Positions 37,722-50,810 of a DNA stretch of 64,000 bases are shown piece after piece; the stretch's first letter is position 1, and every line of letters begins with the position of its first letter. Under the pieces are notes generated by a model. The model ran no database searches. It had not been told where the DNA came from and saw nothing but the letters and a program-made list of their open reading frames with translations. Origin of the DNA: an uncultured Verrucomicrobiae bacterium (lineage in GTDB: Bacteria; Verrucomicrobiota; Verrucomicrobiia; Limisphaerales; Palsa-1400); contig CAVPOM010000015.1 of assembly GCA_963707025.1 (NCBI GenBank), positions 192,001-256,000 on the forward strand. Direction: 5' to 3'. A program made the position numbers and the translations under genes.

Positions 37722-39215
37722 TGAGGTGGACCCCATCCTTTAGACCACGGAGCGCATGAAATAAGCGCGACTTTTGCCGATTGCTGTCATTACTAATTGT
37801 AGTTGACTACTGTTCATTCCGTGTTTCAAAACCCTTTCGAAAAGAGAGAACGAGCGATGCGGAGCACTGCCCGTCCTCCCTCTCCGTTTTCTTAGGGTTC
37901 TCAACTCTACCGCCGCAGGCGGTCTGATTTCAAGCCTTTTCCTGCCGCCTGCCTCTCTGTCAAGTGCTGCGATCGCTCCTGCCTCTGGCAGGTTGCATCG
38001 CTTCCCATTTGGCCGGTTGGGCTCCATGCGTGCCGGGATCAAAATACGCGTCCGCCGGCGTCGCATAGCCCAACGCCTGGTGCGGTCGTTCCCGGTTGTA
38101 GCCGTCAAACCACCGGCCCAGTCCGCGCCCTGCCGCCAACCCGTCGCCATAGTCTTGCAAATAAATGTCCTCATACTTGGCGCTCCGCCACAGCCGCTCG
38201 ATAAACCGGTTGTCCATCCAGCGACCCCGTCCGTCCATGCTCACGTCCACCCCCGCCGATTCCACCGCATCGATAAACATCGGGGAGGTGAACTGCGATC
38301 CCTGGTCGGTATTGGAAATCAACGGCGCCTGACGCCCCGCCCGCAACGCCGCCTCCCAAGCGTCCACACAAAAGTCCGCCTCCAACGTGTTGCTCAAGCG
38401 CCATCCCAGCACGTAACGACTCCACCAATCCATCACCGCCACCAAATACATAAACCCAGTTGCCATAGGCACATACGTAATGTCCGAACACCAAACCTGA
38501 TCCGGTCCCGTCACTGCCAAATTGCGTAACAGATACGGATAAATCTGGTGCCCCATCTCCCGCAGACTCGTCTTGGGCTTGGCGTAAATCGCCTCGATCC
38601 CCATCAACCGCAGCAGCCGCACCACCCGTTTGCGATTGATGGTCAAACCCTCCCGGCGCAACAGCACGGTCAGTTTGCGGCTGCCATAAACCGGGTGGTC
38701 CAAATGCATCTGGTCCAACCGCCGCATCAGCGCCAGGTTCTCCTCTGTCTCCGGACAGCACTGGTAATAATAACTGCCACGGCACACCGCCAGCAGCTCG
38801 CACTGGCGCCGCACGCTGAGCTGCGGATCGGGAGCGATTAAACATGTTAAAGCCCCAGTTGCCTGGACTTTTTTTTAAGCCAGTCCAAGTCCACCGTCAG
38901 TTGGCCAATCTTCTCATGCAGTTGGGCAATCAACTGTTCCTGATCCTCCGTGCGGGGTTGCCCGGGCTCAAACAATTCGGGCATGTGATCCCGAATCGTC
39001 GCCCGCCACTGCGTGACCTGCGCCGGATGCACCGCATACTCTCGCGCCAATTGCGCGACCGTCTTCAGCCCCACCAGGGCTTCGAATCCCACTTTGGCCT
39101 TGAAGGCCGCACTGTGTCTTTTCCGTTTTGCTTTCATAAGTCTGCTCTTTCTTATCTACAGCAAACCGGCAAAAATCGAAACTTACCTGTGGTCTAAAAA
39201 TAGGGGTCCAGCTCA
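37722..39215 (-). mobile_element. IS3-family insertion sequence, copy 2 (1494 bp)
   Basis: Same TIRs as copy 1; 3-bp TSD GGC at 37719-37721 and 39216-39218. Confidence 0.95.
37960..39137 (-). CDS. IS3 transposase OrfA (38847..39137) / OrfB
   Basis: Proteins identical to copy 1. Confidence 0.93.
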
Positions 39216-41706: not shown

Positions 41707-41867
41707 GGGTAGAAGCAATAAAGGAAAAATGCCAATTGCAAAATGATAAAATTCGGCCCGGCCCGCCCAAACCCCATCGTTCCTGTTTGGCAGTGTCCCA
41801 ACTTTCGGTCGTGTACTACCAGATTGTTGATGAATTTGCAAATTGTGGGCAAGATTCAGAAAAACCC

Positions 41868-42236
41868 ATGAAATTTAAAATTGAATTGGATGACGACTCC
41901 GCCCGCCTGCTTCTGGCGGCAGAGCCACCGCCCGGCGTCACGATCAAGGGTCCGCCACCCATCAACCCCGACGCCATAATAACAACGCGGCTGGGCGTGC
42001 CCCAGGAAACAATCCACGCGCTGACCATTTTAGCGGTAAAGGTTGGAACGGGCGTCACGATTTCTTTAGTTTCGGGGTGGCTTCTCAAGGTGCTGAAGAA
42101 TCAACCAGCCGATCAACCAGCCCACAATAAACGCAAGATAGTTCTGAAGACAAAGGATTGGGTACTCACGGTAGAGGATGAGATTGGAAAGGCAAACCCC
42201 CATTATCCCAGCGCCAAAACAAAGCGTAAAAAGTAA
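41868..42236 (+). CDS. Passenger ORF1, hypothetical with a hydrophobic helical hairpin
   Basis: ATG 41868; LTILAVKVGTGVTISLVSGWLLKVLK followed by RKIVLKT. Confidence 0.55.
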   Translation: MKFKIELDDDSARLLLAAEPPPGVTIKGPPPINPDAIITTRLGVPQETIHALTILAVKVGTGVTISLVSGWLLKVLKNQPADQPAHNKRKIVLKTKDWVLTVEDEIGKANPHYPSAKTKRKK

Positions 42237-42262
42237 GGATTTGTTCATTCTTGAAGAATGGC

Positions 42263-42345
42263 GGGGGCGGACAGCCCAAAATCCATCCAGTGGTATAGCT
42301 GGTGATAGGACGCCGCTTGTTTACGGCTGGGATGTCCACGCCCCC
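42263..42345. ncRNA. Predicted three-way-junction structured RNA
   Basis: Outer stem GGGGGCG-GACA-CCCA / TGGG-TGTC-CGCCCCC encloses hairpins CCAG-TGGTATAG-CTGG and GCCG-CTTGTTTA-CGGC. Confidence 0.4.
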
Positions 42346-42363
42346 TTAAAGATTTAAGGCGGA

Positions 42364-42516
42364 TTACTTCCGCACGCGCCATCGGATGGAAATCTGCACT
42401 TTCTGCTGCGGCGCGTTTTTTTCGACCTCGGCGGGGGTTTCCGAAAGAATCTGCTCAATTTGAGCGTGGGTGAGGCGCGGCCCCTGCGGGCGGCGGATTC
42501 GGGGCTTGGTTTTCAT
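42364..42516 (-). CDS. Passenger ORF2, 50-aa basic hypothetical protein
   Basis: MKTKPRIRRPQGPRLTHAQIEQIL...ISIRWRVRK. Confidence 0.4.
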   Translation of the reverse strand: MKTKPRIRRPQGPRLTHAQIEQILSETPAEVEKNAPQQKVQISIRWRVRK

Positions 42517-42596
42517 GTTCAATATCTTAGTGCGGGCTTCGATTGTCAGTGGGTTCATTTTTAAGATTGCCCTGATCGGGCAGCAAGAATAGCCTT

Positions 42597-44046
42597 CACA
42601 GCCATCCCACAGGAAATTGGAAAAAAGTGTTGGCTTGACCATTTGAACCTGCCACAAGGCAGGCATGAAAAACAAAAAAATCAAACCGACACGGTCCCGG
42701 TTTAACGTTTTGCGCCAGATTTGCAATCTCATTCCTGCGCATGAAGTCTCCAAAATAGCGCGGGAGACCGGGCTCTGGATAAGTCGCGCACCTTCAGTCC
42801 GTGGAGTCACACGGTCAGTTTGCTGGACGCGCAACTCACCCATTGCATCGGACTCAACGATCTGTGCGACTCGCTGCAATTGCATTCCGGGCCGCTGTCC
42901 ACTTTGCGCGGCGCCAGCGCCCCCAGCCGCAACGGCCTCTCCCACGCCAACCGGGAGCGTCCGGCCCAGATGGCCGAACAACTCTTCTGGCGGGTCCTGG
43001 AGCATTTGAAAGCACAGACGCCCGGCTTTGCCGCGGGCCAGCGCCGTGGCCCCGCCTTCCGTTTCAAGATGCCCATCCATGTGATTGATAGCACGACCAT
43101 GGAACTGGTGGCCAACTGCCTGGACTGGGCCAAGCACCGCCGGCGCAAGGCCGCCGCCAAAACCCATATGCGGTTGAATCTGCAGAATCTTTTGCCCGGT
43201 TTTGTCATTGTGGACACTGCCGCCGAGCACGACAACCGACGGGCGCGGGAACTGTGCGCCGACTTGAAGAGCGGCGAAATCGCCTTGTTCGACAAGGGTT
43301 ATGTGGACTTCGGCCACTTGCGGGATTTGGACGGGCGCGGGGTCTTTTGGGTGACGCGGGCCAAGGAGAACATGGGCTATGAGGTGGTGCGGAAAATGCC
43401 CGCCTCCAGAGACCCGAAGATTTTGCGCGACGAAGTGATCGTCCTGAGCAACGAGAACAAACCCGCGCCGGAGTTGATGCGCCGGGTGGTGGCGCTGGTC
43501 GAGATTGATGGAGAGGAACGGGAAATGACCTTCCTGACCAACAACCTGGAGTGGAGTCCGCGCAGCGTGGCCGACCTTTACCGCTGCCGCTGGCAGATCG
43601 AAGTCTTCTTCAAACAAATCAAGCAGACCTTGCAGTTGGCGGATTTTCTGGGCCACAACGCCAACGCCGTGCGCTGGCAGGTGTGGACGGCGCTGTTGAC
43701 CTACGTGCTGTTGCGCTACCTCAGTCACCTCTCCAACTGGGCGCACAGCTTCACCCGGCTGTTCACGATTTTGCGGGCGGCGCTCTGGGAGAAATATGAT
43801 CTGCTCAATTTGCTGGCGTGCTATGGGACAGCAGGCGGCAGCTTTCGCCACTTGGCGCGGCCCGAGCAGGCGTATTTCCCCGGCTTCCAATAAAGCTATG
43901 GGACAGCACACGCGCCCAAACAGGCGCATACCACACCCAAAAGCCAAACTCGGAAAAATCAAAATCTCATTTTACCCCGAAGACCAATTAAACCCTTGCA
44001 AATGAACAGGTCAGCACCAGACTTTTCCCCTTATGAGACGGGTGTG
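42597..44046 (+). mobile_element. IS4-family insertion sequence nested in the IS1-family element (1450 bp)
   Basis: Imperfect TIRs CACAGCCATCCCACAGG / CCTTATGAGACGGGTGTG; 9-bp TSD AATAGCCTT at 42588-42596 and 44047-44055. Confidence 0.88.
42665..43893 (+). CDS. IS4 transposase, frameshifted near 42770
   Basis: IDSTT, FDKGY and YRCRWQIEVFFKQIKQ (YREK) motifs; one extra G restores ETGALDKSRTFSPWSH. Confidence 0.9.
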
Positions 44047-44072
44047 AATAGCCTTCATAAACTCCTTATTTT

Positions 44073-44393
44073 ATGACCGACAACGAAACTCGCCTCAACG
44101 AGCAATCCATTTTTGACATTCTGGATGATCTCCGGCGAGCCGGATTTGTTGAGAGTTTCGTCATCAAGGAAGGGAGCGTCCGTGTCGAAGAAGCCAGGAT
44201 CACCTTCACCGAAAAGGGCCGACATTTGATTTCCGCATATGGAGACGCTTTCAGTTGCCTTGGGGACCACGACAAGCGGCACATAGAAACGCTTGACGAA
44301 TTCCTCCGTGCGTTTGCGGCCCAGCAAATCCGGTATATTTCCGGGCAAAGGCTTATCCGGGCCGCAGATGGTGGCTATATCCTCAGCCGTTAA
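44073..44393 (+). CDS. Passenger ORF3, putative winged-helix protein
   Basis: IFDILDDLRRAGFVE...ITFTEKGRHL fits the wHTH L..L...G.V...LT.KG pattern. Confidence 0.5.
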   Translation: MTDNETRLNEQSIFDILDDLRRAGFVESFVIKEGSVRVEEARITFTEKGRHLISAYGDAFSCLGDHDKRHIETLDEFLRAFAAQQIRYISGQRLIRAADGGYILSR

Positions 44394-44486
44394 GGTAATG
44401 GTTTTAGGAATTATCCGCTGAATCCTTATTGAAATTCTCAGGTACGGAGTAAAATCGTGCGTGGCTTTTTGGTATGGCATTTGAAT

Positions 44487-45448
44487 TTAGGTTGTTGATT
44501 GTGTCGTTTGTTCGATCAATTCCTCTACCGACCAAGAGTGGTCGGTGAGTTTCGCGCCCACAGCGGGCGTACATCCCAAAGTTGAATGGACCTTGCAGAA
44601 ATTATAGGCCGCCACAAACAGGCTGTTCGCCGCCTTGTGGTTTTCCAGCTTGCGGGACCAGCCGAGGCCGAGGCGCACAAACCGCTTGTTGAAATGCCGG
44701 ACGGTCAAATTGGCCCGTTCAACATGGCTGGTGCAAATTCTGTCCCGGCGTGGATTACCCGCCTTCACCCGAACCTTGACGCCGACGAAGGGGGCGGGTG
44801 AATATCGCCGGGCAGCTTCGACTTGGCCAAGCGGGGTGGCGAACTGCTTTACCATAACGGCATAATCCAGCCGCTCCAAGAGGTATTGGCGGATGATGGC
44901 CGGGTATGCCCGAAAGGCGTCGCTGGTGATTTGGATGCGCCCGACGATTCGGGAGGCCAAATCCTTTACGAAAACATCTGTATCTCGGCATCCCGTTTGC
45001 CCGTGTAATGGCTGACAATCAGCTTCTCCCGCGCCGCGATACCCAGGAACGTGTAAAAGTCGCCGCGCTCGGTGTCATCTTCCGTTGTGCGGCTCTGGCG
45101 GATTGCGACCCGGCTCCAGAGTTCGTCAACCTGAACCGAATCGGTGGTGATATTGCGAACGAGCCGATCATGCAGGCCAGCGCAGGCGGTGCCAACTTCC
45201 GACAGGACACCCAAAACCGTCCGGGTGTGGCAATCGGTTAATCGGCTGATGGCGCGGACTCCGCATCCCTCGGAGAACAGGCGGACAATCTGGACAATCT
45301 TCCCATGCTCGATCCTCACGCCTTCCAACGGCTGGGATTCGGAAAATGTTTTCCCACACCGGACGCAGCGGTAACGCTGGACGATTCGGTTGCGGTTCTC
45401 AAAATGGCCGAAACGCTGGGTTTCGCCCTGACAGCAATGACAATTCAA
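44487..45448 (-). CDS. IS1-family transposase (Zn ribbon-HTH-DDE), frameshifted near 44985
   Basis: CHCC...YRCVRCGKTF, EGCGVRAISRLT, VQVDELWS, TSDAFRAY and TSHVERANLT motifs. Probable TTG start at 45448 after GAAAGG. Confidence 0.85.
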
Positions 45449-45572
45449 CTTGCCTTTCCGGGCAGGATGAACTACTGTCAAGTCTGCATCTAGCGATGTG
45501 CGACCGAACGCAGTTCACGCTGCGCTTTGTTGCGCCCTGCCGGTGTTCAAGCACTGGCAGGGCAGTTTAAAT

Positions 45573-45660
45573 TTTAGGATCAGGGCGGGGTGTCTCCGGC
45601 TAATGAAGCTGGGATTTACCGTCTAAGGGAAGCCTTGCAAGCTCCCCGCCCGTTCCTGAA
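45573..45660 (-). ncRNA. Predicted multibranch RNA in the transposase leader (motif copy A)
   Basis: Minus-strand stem TTCAGGAACGGGCGGGG / CCCCGCCCTGATCCTAAA; inner hairpin CCAGC-TTCATTA-GCCGG followed by AGACA. Confidence 0.5.
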
Positions 45661-45681
45661 ATTACTTCGCAGAACGGGGGT

Positions 45682-45709
45682 AGTTTACCACATCCACCTT
45701 AAGACGCAA
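45682..45709 (-). promoter_or_regulatory. Putative promoter for the RNA/transposase transcript
   Basis: TTGCGT-N16-TAAACT with an extended TGn on the minus strand. Confidence 0.4.
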
Positions 45710-45769
45710 GCAAATGTTTATTGCGAATAGGGCATGTGCTTATGATGTAAAAGATTGTGCGAAATGGCC

Positions 45770-45798
45770 TTGACATCCATAAGCATGAGGCTTATCGT
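45770..45798 (+). promoter_or_regulatory. Sigma70 promoter with an overlapping palindromic operator
   Basis: TTGACA-N17-TATCGT; ATAAGC-N5-GCTTAT lies across the spacer and -10; ATG is 6 nt downstream (leaderless). Confidence 0.65.
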
Positions 45799-45804
45799 GC
45801 GGGT

Positions 45805-46206
45805 ATGGTTGATGATAAATTTGACATTTTAAAATCGAAATACTCGGAGCGCCTTCGCCAGGCAGAGCGCCAGGTGTCCGAATTAAAAGAGAAGCTCCGC
45901 CTTATCAAGGAACTGGAAGTTGAGGCCAACGCCCAAGCGGTGAATGGGGCCGACGCTGTGGATGGCCAATATAAAACCGCCACTCTTACCCCCGCCATTT
46001 TTGATGCCCTGTCGGTTCTGGCTAAATCCGATTGGATCACCGGCGGTGCGATAAGGAAACATCTCCTGGCGCACGGGTTCCAGCCGAAGGGAAATCATTT
46101 TTCCACTTCGGTCAACCTGACGCTAAGGCGGCTGGCGAAAAACAAGCAAATCCAGACAAAATTGGAGGAGGGAAGCCGACTTTACCAGAGCATCGAAAAG
46201 AAATGA
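45805..46206 (+). CDS. Passenger ORF4, coiled-coil plus winged-helix protein
   Basis: Heptad N-terminus LRQAERQVSELKEKLRLIKELE; C-terminal AIFDAL...IRKHLLAHG...SVNLTLRRL...SRLY wHTH pattern. Confidence 0.7.
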   Translation: MVDDKFDILKSKYSERLRQAERQVSELKEKLRLIKELEVEANAQAVNGADAVDGQYKTATLTPAIFDALSVLAKSDWITGGAIRKHLLAHGFQPKGNHFSTSVNLTLRRLAKNKQIQTKLEEGSRLYQSIEKK

Positions 46207-46289
46207 TTGCAGAAAAGGGGCGCGGAGGATAGCGTGGCACATTCACTTGCATCATTAGCAAGAGACAACGCGCCCCTTTTCTGCAATCA
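46204..46289 (+). ncRNA. Predicted structured RNA (motif copy B)
   Basis: Perfect 21-bp stem TGATTGCAGAAAAGGGGCGCG / CGCGCCCCTTTTCTGCAATCA encloses CTTGC-ATCATTA-GCAAG followed by AGACA. Confidence 0.5.
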
Positions 46290-46442
46290 CGAGACAGTAT
46301 GGCTTTTTGCAATGCGAAAGTCAAACAGAGTTTTAAACGAAGGTCCACACCGTGGGGCGGGACCGCCTTCGGGGAAAAAGGCAGGGTTTTTTGGAGGATT
46401 TTTCATTTGATTTTAAAAGTGAAAAATCTTTAAATCACGCCT

Positions 46443-46907
46443 ATGGAACCGTTGAAGCCTTCCGACCCTGATTATCTTCCGCCCACCAAGGGCAAGACAC
46501 CGGAAGAAATGGCGGACTGGATGGCCAAGAATATGCCGGGTAAGCCGGAATATCTGACATGCCTTTGCAGGGCGTGCTCTCAAAAATTGGAATTTCCCGT
46601 CGAATTGTTTTTCCAGAATTTTAAATGCCCGACGTGTGGAGAAGTGACGCGACTTTTCAATCGAGAATATGGCGATCTCGTCACGACGGAAATGGGGAGG
46701 CGGGTTGAAGCATATTCACGCAGGGTTGGATGTCCAAATTGCGGCTGCTTGGATTATGATCTCTATGAACCAGCAAGGCCGGTCGTTTTTGGTTCGATGA
46801 CTTTCACGGGCCAGCTTCTCGCCGGAATTTCAAACAGCATGGCAGATGCCATGTTCAAGCCGGAAAAGGTGTGCTGTAAATGTGGCCAGCACAGGCCAGA
46901 TTTTTAA
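46443..46907 (+). CDS. Passenger ORF5, double zinc-ribbon protein
   Basis: Four CxxC pairs: CRAC, CPTC, CPNC, CCKC; ends next to the right TIR. Confidence 0.7.
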   Translation: MEPLKPSDPDYLPPTKGKTPEEMADWMAKNMPGKPEYLTCLCRACSQKLEFPVELFFQNFKCPTCGEVTRLFNREYGDLVTTEMGRRVEAYSRRVGCPNCGCLDYDLYEPARPVVFGSMTFTGQLLAGISNSMADAMFKPEKVCCKCGQHRPDF

Positions 46908-47005
46908 GCATTTATCAACAATCTGGTAGTACACGACCCAACTTTCCACGGCTCCGCTTTTCCTCTTGCCTCTTGGCGCCGTCGGCGCAACATCCGCCCA
47001 TCACT

Positions 47006-48555
47006 ATGAAAATACTATGCCTCCTTCTGGTTGTGACCGTGCCGGCTTTCGCCCAGGGCCGCCGCGGGCGCGGCGCGCAAATTGATGCCACCGTCCCGTC
47101 CCAGCGCTCCGGAAGCGTTGACACCAATACTCCCGTCTCGGAGAAGATTGATGAAACGCCGGTCATCACGCATCACACCAATACGGTCGGCGGCAGGACG
47201 CTGGTCTATACCGCCACGGCGGCGGAGATGCCGATTTTCAACGCGGTCGGCGAAGTGGAAGCGCACATGTTCTATGTCGCCTACACGCTGGATGAGGCCA
47301 GCAATAATCCGGCCCGGCGGCCGGTGTCCTTTTCCTTTAACGGCGGGCCGGGCTCGGCTTCGGTCTGGGTCCACATGGGTGCCTTTGGCCCAGGCGGGTG
47401 AACCTGACGGACAGCGGCGACATGCCGCCGCCGCCCTACCATTTGGTGGACAACGAAGACACGCTGCTGGATCAAACGGACCTGGTGTTCATTGACGCGG
47501 TGGGCACGGGTTTCAGCCGCGCCAAATCGCCGGAACTGGCGCGCAAATATGAGGGGGTGCAGGGCGATTTGACGGCCTTCGGGGAATTTATCCGCCTGTA
47601 TTTGACACGCAATTCGCGCTGGCTCTCGCCCCTGTTCATCGTGGGGGAAAGCTACGGGACCTTCCGGGCGGCGGGCCTGGCCGGAACCCTGGTGGAACAG
47701 GGGATCGCGCTCAACGGCGTGGTTTTGGTTTCGACCATTTTATATTACGAGACCGCGCGCGCCAGCCTGGCCAACGGGCTGCCTTATGCCTTGAACATCC
47801 CAACCTACGCCGCCGACGCCTGGTATCATAAGAAGCTGGCCCCGGACCTGCAACGGCTGGAGGTGCCGGTCTTGACCAAGGAAGTCGAGGGCTGGGCCAT
47901 GACCGCCTATCTCCAGGCGCTGAACAAGGGGGACCAATTGCCCGACGGCGAACGCAAGGAGGTGGTGGCCCGGCTGGCGAGATATACCGGGTTGAGCACC
48001 AATTACGTGGACCAAAGCAACCTGCGCTTCGGCGTCGGCCAGTTCACCCGCGAATTGTTGCGCGACGAAAAATTGACCATTGGCCGCTACGACGGGCGGC
48101 TGACCGGGCCGTCGCCGTTGAACATGGGGGAAACGTCGGATTTCGATCCTTCCGGCTCACTGCCCCTGCCGCCCTTCCGGGCGACGTTCATGGATTACGT
48201 GCGCGGCACCTTGGAATTCAAGACGGACATGACCTATTATATCAGCGGCGGCACGGTGGGATGGGATTGGGGCGTGGTCAACGGCTATGTTGAAACCGGC
48301 AGCCTCCTGCGCAGCGCCTTTCAGAAAAATCCGCATCTGAAAGTGCTGGTGTGCGCCGGCTATTTCGATTTGGCCTGCCCCTACTTCGACGCCGAATATG
48401 CGCTCAACCACCTGGGCATTCACCCCGAGACGCAGAAGAACATCTCTTGGGCCTTCTACGAAGCTGGCCACATGATGTACATTGACCGCAAATCGCACGC
48501 CAAGCTCAGGCACGACATCGCCGCGTTCATGCAGCAGAACGTCCCGGCGCAGTGA
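47006..48555 (+). CDS. S10 serine carboxypeptidase, frameshifted near 47392
   Basis: FNGGPGSAS, FIDAVGTGFS, GESYG and YEAGHMMY motifs; one extra C restores GPRRVN. Confidence 0.92.
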
Positions 48556-48616
48556 GGACCGAGGACGAACGAGCCAAGAAAGCTTGCAAGAATTGGCCGA
48601 AGCATTACGTTGCCGG

Positions 48617-49273
48617 GTGTGCCGGGTACTTTTAACGGTTCAGTTTCTCCGCGACGAAGCAATTGCCTTTGCCAGAGTGGAGTCAAAATTCGCCGAGCCG
48701 TCTCTGTTTGGGGTTACGGATGGAAAAGCTGTCGGGACTTATCTTGAGCACAAGTTTCAAGCGTACCTACAAAGCAAATATCAATATGCCAAGGGAAGTT
48801 CGGCCAGGGGAATTGATTTCCCGGAATTGGATGTTGACATAAAAGTCACCAGCATTCGCCAGCCACAGTCCTCCTGCCCGTTCAAAAGCGCCCGCCAAAA
48901 GATCTACGGTCTTGGCTACTCACTGCTTGTTTTCGTCTATGACAAGCACGATGATCCGCAGACTCAGACGGGCCGCCTGGAATTGCAGCACACGATTTTT
49001 GTCGAAAAAGAACGCACGGCCGATTATCAGATCACCGTTGCCTTGCGGAACATGATTGAGAACGGCGCGAATCGTGATGACATTCTCGCCTGTTTCGAAG
49101 AACGTCTTTTGCCGGTTGACAATGTTGAAGCGGAAGCGTTGGCCGAGGAGGTTCTACGGAATATGCCGCCGATCGGCTATTTGACGATCTCGAACGCCCT
49201 CCAATGGCGGCTTCAGTATTCCAGGGTGATTGAACAAGCCGGAAAAGTGGAAGGAGTTTTGCGGCTGGAATGA
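48617..49273 (+). CDS. Type II restriction endonuclease (NspV-like, from recall)
   Basis: GVTDGKAVGTYLEHKF and GIDFPELDVDIKVTS (PD-D/ExK-like); ATGA coupling to the MTase. Start approximate. Confidence 0.72.
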   Translation: MCRVLLTVQFLRDEAIAFARVESKFAEPSLFGVTDGKAVGTYLEHKFQAYLQSKYQYAKGSSARGIDFPELDVDIKVTSIRQPQSSCPFKSARQKIYGLGYSLLVFVYDKHDDPQTQTGRLELQHTIFVEKERTADYQITVALRNMIENGANRDDILACFEERLLPVDNVEAEALAEEVLRNMPPIGYLTISNALQWRLQYSRVIEQAGKVEGVLRLE

Positions 49274-50810
49274 GATCGAATGCGAAAGTTGAGTTTGGGG
49301 ATTTTCAGACCCCGCAGGCGCTGGCCAACCAAGTTTGCGCGCTGTTGGCGCGACGCCAAATTGTTCCGGACTTCGTTCTCGAACCAACTTGCGGAGTTGG
49401 CTCTTTTCTTGTGGCGGCCGCCCACTCGTTTTCCCGCGCGCAATTGTTCGGCTGGGACATCAATGGCGATTATGTGGAAAAAACGCGCGCCGCTCTCCGC
49501 CAGGCAGGCGCGGCTGGGCGCTCTACGGTTGCGCGGCAGGATTTTTTCAAACACAACTGGGAACGGGAACTGGCCGGTTTTAAGGGCGAACTTCTCATTC
49601 TCGGCAATCTTCCTTGGGTCACAAATGCCGCGGTTTCCAGTCTCAACGGGGGCAATGTGCCTGTCAAGCGCAATTTTCAAGGATTTCGCGGCCTGGAGGC
49701 TCGCACCGGCAAATCCAATTTCGATATTTCGGAATGGATGCTGATTGAGCTGATAAAATCCCTGCGTGGAAGGCCGGCGACCATCGCAGTACTTTGCAAG
49801 ACGGCCATCGCCCGAAAATTGCTTCGCTTCGCATGGCAGAATGACGGACGGATCACGGCGGCATCGCTTTATCTCATTGACGCCAAAAAGCATTTTGAAG
49901 CAGCAGTGGATGCTTGCTTGCTTTTGGCGCGAACCGGCTCGGCAGGTCCGACGGAAGCGGCGGTTTTTGACGATCTGCAGGCCCAAACGCCAGCAAAGGT
50001 TTTGGGCTTGGCCGGCCAGGATCTTGTCTCCAATGTCCGGGATTACGAAAAGCTCAGGCATTTGGAGGGACTTTGCCCATATCAATGGCGGTCCGGTGTC
50101 AAACATGATTGCTCCTCGGTGATGGAACTCTGGCTCGAGGGGGAAACGTGCTGCGCAACAAACTCGATGAGAAAGTGGAACTCGAACCGGACTTTTTGTT
50201 TCCGCTCCTAAAATGCTCCGACCTGGCAAATGGCAGAACCGAGCCGGAGCGTTTTGTTTTGGTGACGCAAACGCGGGTTGGCGAAGATACTTCCGGGATT
50301 TCCACCAAAGCTCCTCTGACCTGGAATTATCTGGATTCACACAGAAGACTTTTCGAGGCGCGAAAGAGTTCCATCTACGCCAGCCGGATTCCGTTCGCGC
50401 TTTTTGGCATCGGCGATTATTCATTTGCGCCGTGGAAGGTGGCGATTTCGGGATTCCATAAGACACCGCGCTTTGTCCGGGTGGCGCCTTGGCAAGACAA
50501 GCCGGTTTTTTTTGATGATGCGTGTTATTTTCTGCCGTTTCAGAACCTGGAAGAAACCGAAGCCGTCGCCGATATTCTAAATTCCGAGCCATGTCTGCGT
50601 TTTATTGCGTCGCTTTTGTTTGAAGATTCCAAGCGCCCGATTACGGTTGAACTGCTGCAACGGCTCAACCTTTACGCAATCGCAGAAGAAGCGGGTTTGG
50701 CCGATAGATGGGCATCCGCTCGCAATCAGCGGAATTGTTATCCTTGTGAGAGCGAGTCCCGGCAAGCTGAATTCCTGATGGAACGACCAGCGTCCTCACG
50801 GCAAAAATGA
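49270..50810 (+). CDS. Amino DNA methyltransferase (gamma class, M.NspV-like), frameshifted near 50140
   Basis: FGDFQTP, LEPTCGVGSFL (motif I) and GNLPW (motif IV); G6 instead of G5 joins the two ORFs. Confidence 0.8.

Follow-up and report, generated by a model that had tools for sequence, protein, structure and literature searches.

What kind of mobile element lies between two peptidase genes on contig CAVPOM010000015.1 of an uncultured Verrucomicrobiae bacterium, and what limits the output of its transposase? The window analysed here is the whole stretch of 64,000 nucleotides (nt) taken from that contig (positions 192,001 to 256,000); the genome that carries it is called G000, its contigs are given C-numbers, and the loci examined L-numbers. 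An initial annotation had described a cargo transposon of the IS1 family in this window, and had taken it to be a new element with phage-like divergent regulation. The element proved to be a transporter insertion sequence (tIS) of the IS1 family: a DDE transposon whose transposase is encoded by a single open reading frame (ORF), with passenger genes. What its clade shares, and what was absent from the earlier account, is a predicted structured RNA at the start of the transposase gene (tnp). Taken as a whole, the sequence comparisons make it probable that tnp output of this tIS element is limited by a two-state RNA leader, probably together with an antisense RNA.

The element spans 5132 bp (41807-46938), or 3673 bp once a nested IS4-family element and one copy of its target are subtracted. 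Its 29-bp terminal inverted repeats (TIRs), one downstream of tnp (41807..41835, + strand) and one upstream (46910..46938, - strand), are identical at 28 of 29 positions, and the clade consensus begins GGTCGTG. An 8-bp target site duplication (TSD), CAACTTTC, is present on both sides (41799..41806 and 46939..46946). The initial annotation had proposed looking for an empty site with a single target, and one was found in G003, a genome of the same genus (L084): one target copy (CAACCTTC) is present there, the insertion point is uninterrupted, and 263 of 290 positions are identical without gaps. As a control, the procedure used for finding TIRs and TSDs gave no match at 60 random genome positions. 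The G+C content of the element is 0.52, versus 0.65 and 0.61 in its flanks. It evidently entered, as a single block, the region of divergent promoters between an S9 peptidase gene (DPPIV_N and Peptidase_S9 domains) and an S10 peptidase gene, and the IS4-family element (42597..44046, + strand; NF033592, 225 bits), bordered by a 9-bp TSD, AATAGCCTT, came later. The delimitation, the length of about 3.7 kb without IS4 and the position between divergent peptidase genes had all been read correctly at the outset. In contigs from the sequencing runs, IS4 was well covered and the element was recovered in pieces, with no joint spanning the insertion.

The tnp gene (44487..45448, - strand) encodes a zinc finger (CxCC..CxxC), a helix-turn-helix (HTH) and a D-D-E triad within VDELW, TSDAF and HVERAN; its start codon would be TTG. 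For tnp and its relatives the best transposase models were NF033558 (E 1.7e-13), NF050000 and, weakly, PF03400. Scores stayed below the curated cut-offs: the halves of the split window gene (see below) reached 50.9 and 15.6 bits in the IS1 hidden Markov model, versus 100, and an intact relative scored 22.7 in Pfam, versus 24.1. Motifs and best models thus agree with the internal IS1-family transposase initially proposed, at scores under the cut-offs. The nearest plasmid matches are annotated as IS1 family transposase and have 36-38% protein identity (best 38%). Short TIRs starting with GG and a TSD within the 8-9 bp of the IS1 family were found as well. With its single-ORF members, which we take to be grouped in ISfinder with an ISMhu11 subgroup, the window clade shares GG-ended TIRs, the 8-bp TSD and the zinc finger-HTH-DDE transposase; it differs in scores below curated cut-offs, in having no programmed insA/insB frameshift, in a size of 2-4 kb with passengers on both sides, and in a conserved RNA leader.

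Cargo transposons as such are already known, and here, as in tIS, the passengers lie within the TIRs of one insertion sequence that moves as a unit. According to PMC9330008 and PMC5704250, tISSag10/MTnSag1 and tISCpe8, tIS of the IS1595 family, consist of one DDE transposase with passengers in one pair of TIRs of about 25 bp, with 8-bp direct repeats. Compared with what these texts present, the arrangement of passengers and one transposase within one TIR pair and the 8-bp repeats are the same, whereas the window clade has an IS1 transposase, and in place of resistance genes it carries regulators, toxin-antitoxin and defence-type genes, or genes of no known kind. The IS1595 family is defined, according to PMC8101967, by the DDE_Tnp_IS1595 domain; no Pfam or NCBIfam match to this domain was found in the transposase. 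What is new here, as far as comparison tells, is a tandem RNA leader, made of two elements called R1 and R2, that is not in Rfam 15.

R1 (45434..45580), a conserved structure of about 145 nt that overlaps the tnp start, folds best on the + strand, antisense to tnp, into four covarying hairpins: H4, which lies over the Shine-Dalgarno (SD) and the start codon, H3, H2, and H1 followed by a U-tract. The SD-like GGAAAGG of tnp (45453..45459, - strand), read from the sequence, has a nearly invariant A-A-x-G core. H1 with its T-rich tail on the antisense strand (45534..45563, + strand) is terminator-like for a transcript antisense to tnp. We analysed the 140 nt ahead of the first tnp cysteine in 46 distinct leaders (47 were found, and L018 was excluded as unrelated). 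Antisense folds had z < -2 in all 46, with a mean of -5.7, and the antisense minimum free energy was the lower one in 41 of 46. Compensatory changes were present at 22 of 44 pairs in a sequence-only MAFFT alignment and at 31 of 40 pairs in a model-fitted alignment. None of 500 shuffles gave such a result, and controls in which the helices were slid paired 34-46% of cells, versus 82-87%. Counted as G-U on the antisense versus the sense strand, wobbles numbered 79/30 in H1, 75/9 in H2, 39/1 in H3 and 33/18 in H4, and at least 6 T in 10 nt followed H1 in 37 of 48 alignment rows.

On the mRNA strand, a segment Y pairs either with a segment Z, which covers the SD and the start, or with a segment X from H2; the two helices are mutually exclusive, and both folds are populated. 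In a set of 30 leaders that are less than 78% alike, a leader's own partners on average fit better than mismatched ones: X:Y pairs from one and the same leader had a mean of -15.0 kcal/mol, versus -10.8 for mismatched ones, and own Y:Z pairs -12.0 versus -9.0, values reached in 0 of 5000 permutations each. We consider a two-state leader on the tnp mRNA likely from these alignments. The output of tnp would then most likely be limited post-transcriptionally. In the OFF state, Y would pair with Z and bury the SD and the start codon of tnp; in the ON state, X would leave H2 and pair with Y, freeing both. The four stable hairpins and the terminator of the opposite strand are what would be expected of a cis-antisense RNA holding the leader OFF; whether an antisense RNA covers the leader in this way is, in our judgement of the folds, an evenly balanced matter.

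The association of R1 with transposase starts is tight. The R1 model gave 54 full-length matches in 85 sources, mostly training sequences, and R1 was present at all 14 genome loci with an intact tnp start, several of which duplicate training loci. A third, previously unseen copy in G000 scored 68 bits. Whole-genome searches found R1 in 13 of 30 genomes of the same family, and 16 of the 19 matches of at least 40 bits directly precede tnp or a tnp remnant. Beyond the family R1 is rare, with one weak match in 150 genomes of the phylum and matches in two of 150 genomes of the order, and none was detected in six IS1 loci with GGTAGTG ends. Rfam 15 gave no meaningful match, for R1 or R2, in the window element, two sibling loci or 8 relatives. 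At one locus (L148, G001:C277:461-588) the H1-H2 half of the leader stands ahead of an ORF that looks Rha-like by eye, and not of tnp, and the leader motif may also serve other mobile genes.

Directly upstream of R1 lies R2 (45571..45668, - strand), a covarying three-way junction with an invariant C-A-U in a 7-nt loop and an invariant G-C around it. Compensatory changes affect 16 of its 20 pairs (29 of 33 matches aligned; four length variants left out). Counting duplicates, R2 was found at 35 of the 67 loci whose upstream DNA is long enough. It often begins at the stop codon of a winged helix-turn-helix (wHTH)-type gene, and it is missing where the upstream gene belongs to a family of about 300 aa without Pfam match, which we assume from a motif to be HEPN-like. 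In the 30 family genomes, all 7 non-self R2 matches adjoin an R1 match. G000 holds two R2 copies, both in the window element and inverted around the passenger gene orfD; the second (46201..46287, + strand, 53.8 bits) lies at the orfD stop, within a 21-bp perfect inverted repeat. R2 would be an accessory RNA module, usually placed between a wHTH-type gene and the leader. The best guess for its role, a binding site for a protein in the leader transcript, or a sensing function, is a doubtful one. Still more speculative, and very unlikely, is that R2 and R1 form one signal-responsive control unit, in which the CAU loop would mimic the methionine anticodon loop, sense stress or phage attack (through anticodon-nuclease activity or an initiator-tRNA-binding factor, for example), flip R1, and move toxin-antitoxin and defence cargo under threat.

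Several observations weigh against a two-state leader with an antisense RNA, or against parts of it. The helices were initially taken from folds of the antisense strand, a choice that favours G-U pairs on that strand, and the sequences are related, so that shuffle counts are not probabilities. On plain alignments RNAalifold gave 3 pairs for the sense strand and 8 for the antisense strand, all of them in H1, and a leader's own X:Y partner comes no higher than 18th in 4 of 30 cases. R2 is absent from 32 of the 67 loci, and is thus not required; tnp is frameshifted in both close copies of this assembly. Finally, no conserved antisense promoter was detected: the highest sigma70 scores within the first 270 nt of coding sequence averaged 5.90, versus 5.89 in synonymous shuffles, and the sole hint is a preference for CAA at the glutamine of VQR (44 of 56, versus 381 of 628 elsewhere).

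This lack of an antisense promoter signal fits a leader that acts in the mRNA only. Translation would then be switched between two states by a protein, by the ribosomes on the gene upstream or by the length of the transcript, there would be no antisense RNA, and the A-C mismatches of the sense strand would merely weaken H1-H3. Strong sense promoters 10-40 nt ahead of H1 in several elements lacking R2 (scores 8-12) and the covariation of X:Y and Y:Z point the same way. The wobble bias, however, extends to H3 and H1, helices that need no weakening in such a model, and it is only on the antisense strand that H1 is followed by the T-rich tail. We consider a purely mRNA-based switch the less probable option, and retain the two-state leader probably accompanied by an antisense RNA.

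The nearest worked-out parallels to R1 are, by analogy, IS10 RNA-OUT and IS200 art200. As presented in PMC4513863, IS10 RNA-OUT and IS200 art200, the latter with a stem-loop in the tnpA 5' untranslated region, combine a structure over the tnp ribosome-binding site with a cis-antisense RNA, and the -10 of art200 is nearly unrecognisable. Relative to that description, R1 likewise has a structure over the tnp translation initiation region and a predicted cis-antisense RNA covering it, whereas the window transposase and sequence are unrelated, Rfam gives no match, there are four hairpins, a covarying alternative helix and a second module upstream, and R1 itself is a prediction from sequence comparison. 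The locus thus adds two strongly covarying RNA motifs tied to the tnp start of one IS1 clade and, if the switch is true, a way of controlling transposase that includes an ON fold of its own and goes further than the simple occlusion described for IS10 and IS200. In the literature we found no description of the clade or of its leader; the accessible part of 10.64898/2026.10.21.760802 treats IS110, and its 1.5 million motif clusters could contain R1 or R2.

A second set of parallels comes from phages. P1 C4, P4 CI, IsrK, P22 sar and lambda OOP are phage antisense systems, and in C4, P4 CI and IsrK the loops are complementary to sites on either side of them in their own transcript. R2 resembles these in being a three-way-junction RNA that lies between the gene of a DNA-binding protein and a gene under regulation, and R1 in having an antisense fold that ends at an intrinsic terminator. 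Compared with C4, P4 CI and IsrK, R1 and R2 differ in lacking an Rfam match and a phage context: their exact patterns gave no match in viral contigs, and pairing of R2 with C4-type targets showed no consistent complementarity in the 14 loci (of 33) examined, where scattered 6-7-mers were seen.

The frameshift bears on whether the window copy is still a source of transposase. A single-base frameshift near 44975-44985, inside the DDE domain, breaks tnp in two, and there is no A-run there. Classical IS1 elements express insA and insB by a programmed -1 frameshift at A6C, between HTH and DDE. Among relatives whose alignments span the site, tnp is in frame in 64 of 69, and no insA/insB-type programmed frameshift was thus found. 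In the closest sibling, on contig C2 of G000, tnp is broken at the same site in the opposite direction (-1 and +1). Furthermore, the same single G is missing from 12 of 44 IS4 copies, irrespective of haplotype, and contigs of three runs have that G. Because of these opposite breaks at one site, the intact frame of relatives and the context-specific indels in IS4 copies, we read the tnp break as a likely assembly error. That the frameshift is real, and the window copy a dead element, would agree with the broken state of both close copies in the assembly. We regard this as unlikely, since it leaves the opposite breaks and the IS4 indels aside, the TIRs and the TSD are intact, and two genes nearby are broken as well: the S10 peptidase gene (window 47006-48555) and an adenine methyltransferase-like gene (49270-50810) each lie in two pieces, probably due to assembly indels.

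The initial annotation had presented the element as a new one. Rather than being an isolated element, it belongs to a large clade with GGTCGTG ends, mainly verrucomicrobial, in which passenger slots have been swapped between copies. Both ends of a relative could be defined at 26 of 80 loci from metagenomes and at 9 of 17 additional ones, giving, after removal of duplicates, 29 distinct elements of 2071-4199 bp, and 18 of 23 genome loci carry titles of Verrucomicrobiota or a subgroup. Comparison of cargo among copies, another check suggested beforehand, shows the swapping directly. The closest sibling (G000:C2:89923-95217, L001:1024-6318; TSD TTATTTCT, with a nested IS3-type element) keeps tnp (91% nt identity), orfE, the region upstream of orfE and the orfB region; the other slots hold different genes, and a 310-aa gene without Pfam match stands where the window has orfD. 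The 33 TSDs of the clade display only a loose S-R-W-W-W-Y-Y-S tendency and their flanks are unrelated, and hence there is no evidence of site homing in the clade.

Cargo ORFs were hand-picked from 94 ORFs of relatives plus those of the sibling, and apparent shadow frames were dropped. A Pfam match was obtained for 22 of 81 (Panacea, PIN, NYN, IrrE, DNA methylase with Mrr, GIY-YIG, Bro-N, Rha, P63C, SecB, DUF5343 and others), and a PADLOC match for 11 of 80. R1 and R2 also provide a marker for a clade that moves genes for regulators, toxin-antitoxin and defence-type functions between Verrucomicrobiota of peat and soil. Cargo unrelated to defence occurs in relatives too, with an indole-3-glycerol-phosphate synthase-like gene (L031:3417-4286) and a hemerythrin (L044:3303-3764).

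Could the hairpins function in the form of single-stranded DNA, for instance as sites of recombination or of cassette capture, which would explain both the cargo swapping and an inversion of orfD? The inverted R2 copies that flank orfD here, together with orfD homologues elsewhere that are co-oriented with tnp, would agree with this, and G-T wobbles are possible in DNA as well. Nevertheless, R1 always covers the SD and the start codon, and no recombinase is present among the 22 Pfam-matched cargo ORFs; attC-type ends, as we take their consensus to be, were not seen by eye in the window hairpins. We judge a DNA function very improbable, and keep to an RNA leader.

The five passenger ORFs initially listed are all present in the window copy. 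Two of them have no family match: orfA (41868..42236, + strand), an orphan of 122 aa with a hydrophobic segment, for which 300 genomes of the order gave four weak partial matches (E >= 7e-4), and the basic orfB (42364..42558, - strand), with 50 aa from the second ATG, the size first reported, or 64 aa, which has a weak homologue in the C2 sibling (E 0.009, L001:5428-5634). Just after orfB, a folded non-coding segment (42262..42350, z -3.4 on the - strand) is 83% identical to the C2 sibling; this candidate rests on two sequences, and no convincing match was found beyond that sibling. The two wHTH-like ORFs proposed earlier are supported to different degrees. Convergent with tnp, orfC (44073..44393, + strand, 106 aa) has a weakly PadR-like winged helix (Pfam E 0.042), and its homologue search gave a single match, at 72%, named PadR. 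For orfD (45805..46206, + strand, 133 aa), a coiled coil and a winged helix are predicted (AF2 mean pLDDT 85.8); the best Foldseek rows were wHTH proteins of ArsR/MarR/Fur type, with E >= 2.7e-3, and its homologue search returned orfD alone.

The fifth passenger, orfE (46443..46907, + strand, 154 aa), encodes the double zinc ribbon noted from the start, an N-terminal ribbon followed by a C-terminal CPxCG-hydrophobic helix-CxxCG domain. The C2 sibling shares orfE at 81% and the region upstream of it (46373..46460, + strand) at 90%. It belongs to a modular family in which the C-terminal CPxCG-hydrophobic-CxxCG domain is conserved (44 representatives); the homologue search gave one other protein. 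The best hit of a fold search was the ZitP zinc finger (Z 4.1), for the N-terminal ribbon only, and the nearest Atlas clusters, one of them LITAF-like, score <0.9. A membrane-associated zinc protein is a lead only.

A divergent promoter region separates orfD from tnp. The orfD promoter, TTGACA-17-TATCGT (45770..45798, + strand), contains the palindrome ATAAGC-N5-GCTTAT (45779-45795), and as the ATG comes 7 nt past the -10, the orfD mRNA is probably leaderless. On the other side, TTGCGT-16-TG.TAAACT (45682..45709, - strand), seen by eye and under the scan threshold, is a possible tnp promoter. A similar palindrome precedes the 40%-identical homologue in L104, which suggests autorepression; we hold it moderately probable, from this predicted binding site, that OrfD is an autorepressor at its palindrome, and it might repress the divergent tnp promoter too. 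One part of the phage-like divergent regulation first proposed thus fits: the promoters are divergent, and a conserved palindrome covers that of orfD.

The other part, one coherent phage-like module, is not supported. It would amount to a phage-derived, lysogeny-like unit in which two wHTH regulators control coherent cargo, for example membrane-based superinfection exclusion. The divergent promoters, the operator-like palindrome and the probably leaderless repressor are in its favour, as are the Bro-N, Rha, P63C and IrrE plus HTH proteins and the PADLOC matches in relatives, and a superinfection-immunity domain in the zinc-ribbon cargo of another IS1 element of G000 (below). Conversely, none of the five window cargo ORFs matches PADLOC, cargo slots are swapped, with orfE and orfB only kept in the closest sibling, and the homologues of orfD (29-40%) in L104, L110 and L111 lie directly upstream of tnp and co-oriented with it, while orfD is divergent here. 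R1 and R2 patterns are absent from viral contigs, the transposase is matched in one phage record, at 26%, and IS1s carrying cargo occur on alphaproteobacterial plasmids. A lysogeny-like module is therefore quite unlikely, and the RNA-limited tIS element remains the reading we prefer.

G000 holds 13 IS1-type transposase sites, and at 8 of them TIRs and 8-bp TSDs delimit an element of 2.7-5.6 kb, four with GGTC-type ends like the window element and four with GGTAGTG ends. In one GGTAGTG-type element (G000:C4:72624-75331, L125), the cargo consists of a zinc-ribbon superinfection-immunity protein (domain E 1e-13) and a proteasome-fold protein. Two further IS1 elements, G000:C16:74283-79841 (L127) and G000:C9:13485-16448 (L126), carry a Schlafen/AlbA_2-HATPase protein and an HTH-IrrE protein, and the C9 element is closely flanked by a tRNA gene. 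Within the IS1 element of C14, a short match to a tmRNA/tRNA 3' end (L124:2279-2348) reached 28.9 bits, below gathering, with no ARAGORN gene; an element of the window clade at L054:4654-6907 contains a tRNA-Arg(GCG) gene. The element G000:C16:63028-67146 (L002) has TIRs of the window clade and a TSD, but of tnp it keeps only a short remnant; it also contains a 202-aa ORF and two insertions, an IS4 and one of IS3 type, and is a non-autonomous derivative. On plasmids of Acidiphilium multivorum and Mesorhizobium loti, IS1s (L181:1237-3870, L182:766-4135) are cargo elements bounded by TIRs and TSDs, annotated only as single genes.

Around the window element, a 263-aa ORF without Pfam match (48482-49273), possibly a restriction enzyme, precedes the methyltransferase-like gene. 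An IS3-type element (rve, HTH_21) lies at window 37960-39137, and such elements are nested in three other IS1 elements of G000 too. The IS4 is present in about 45 near-full copies in G000, more than 99% identical and in AT-rich 9-bp targets, which marks a recent burst.

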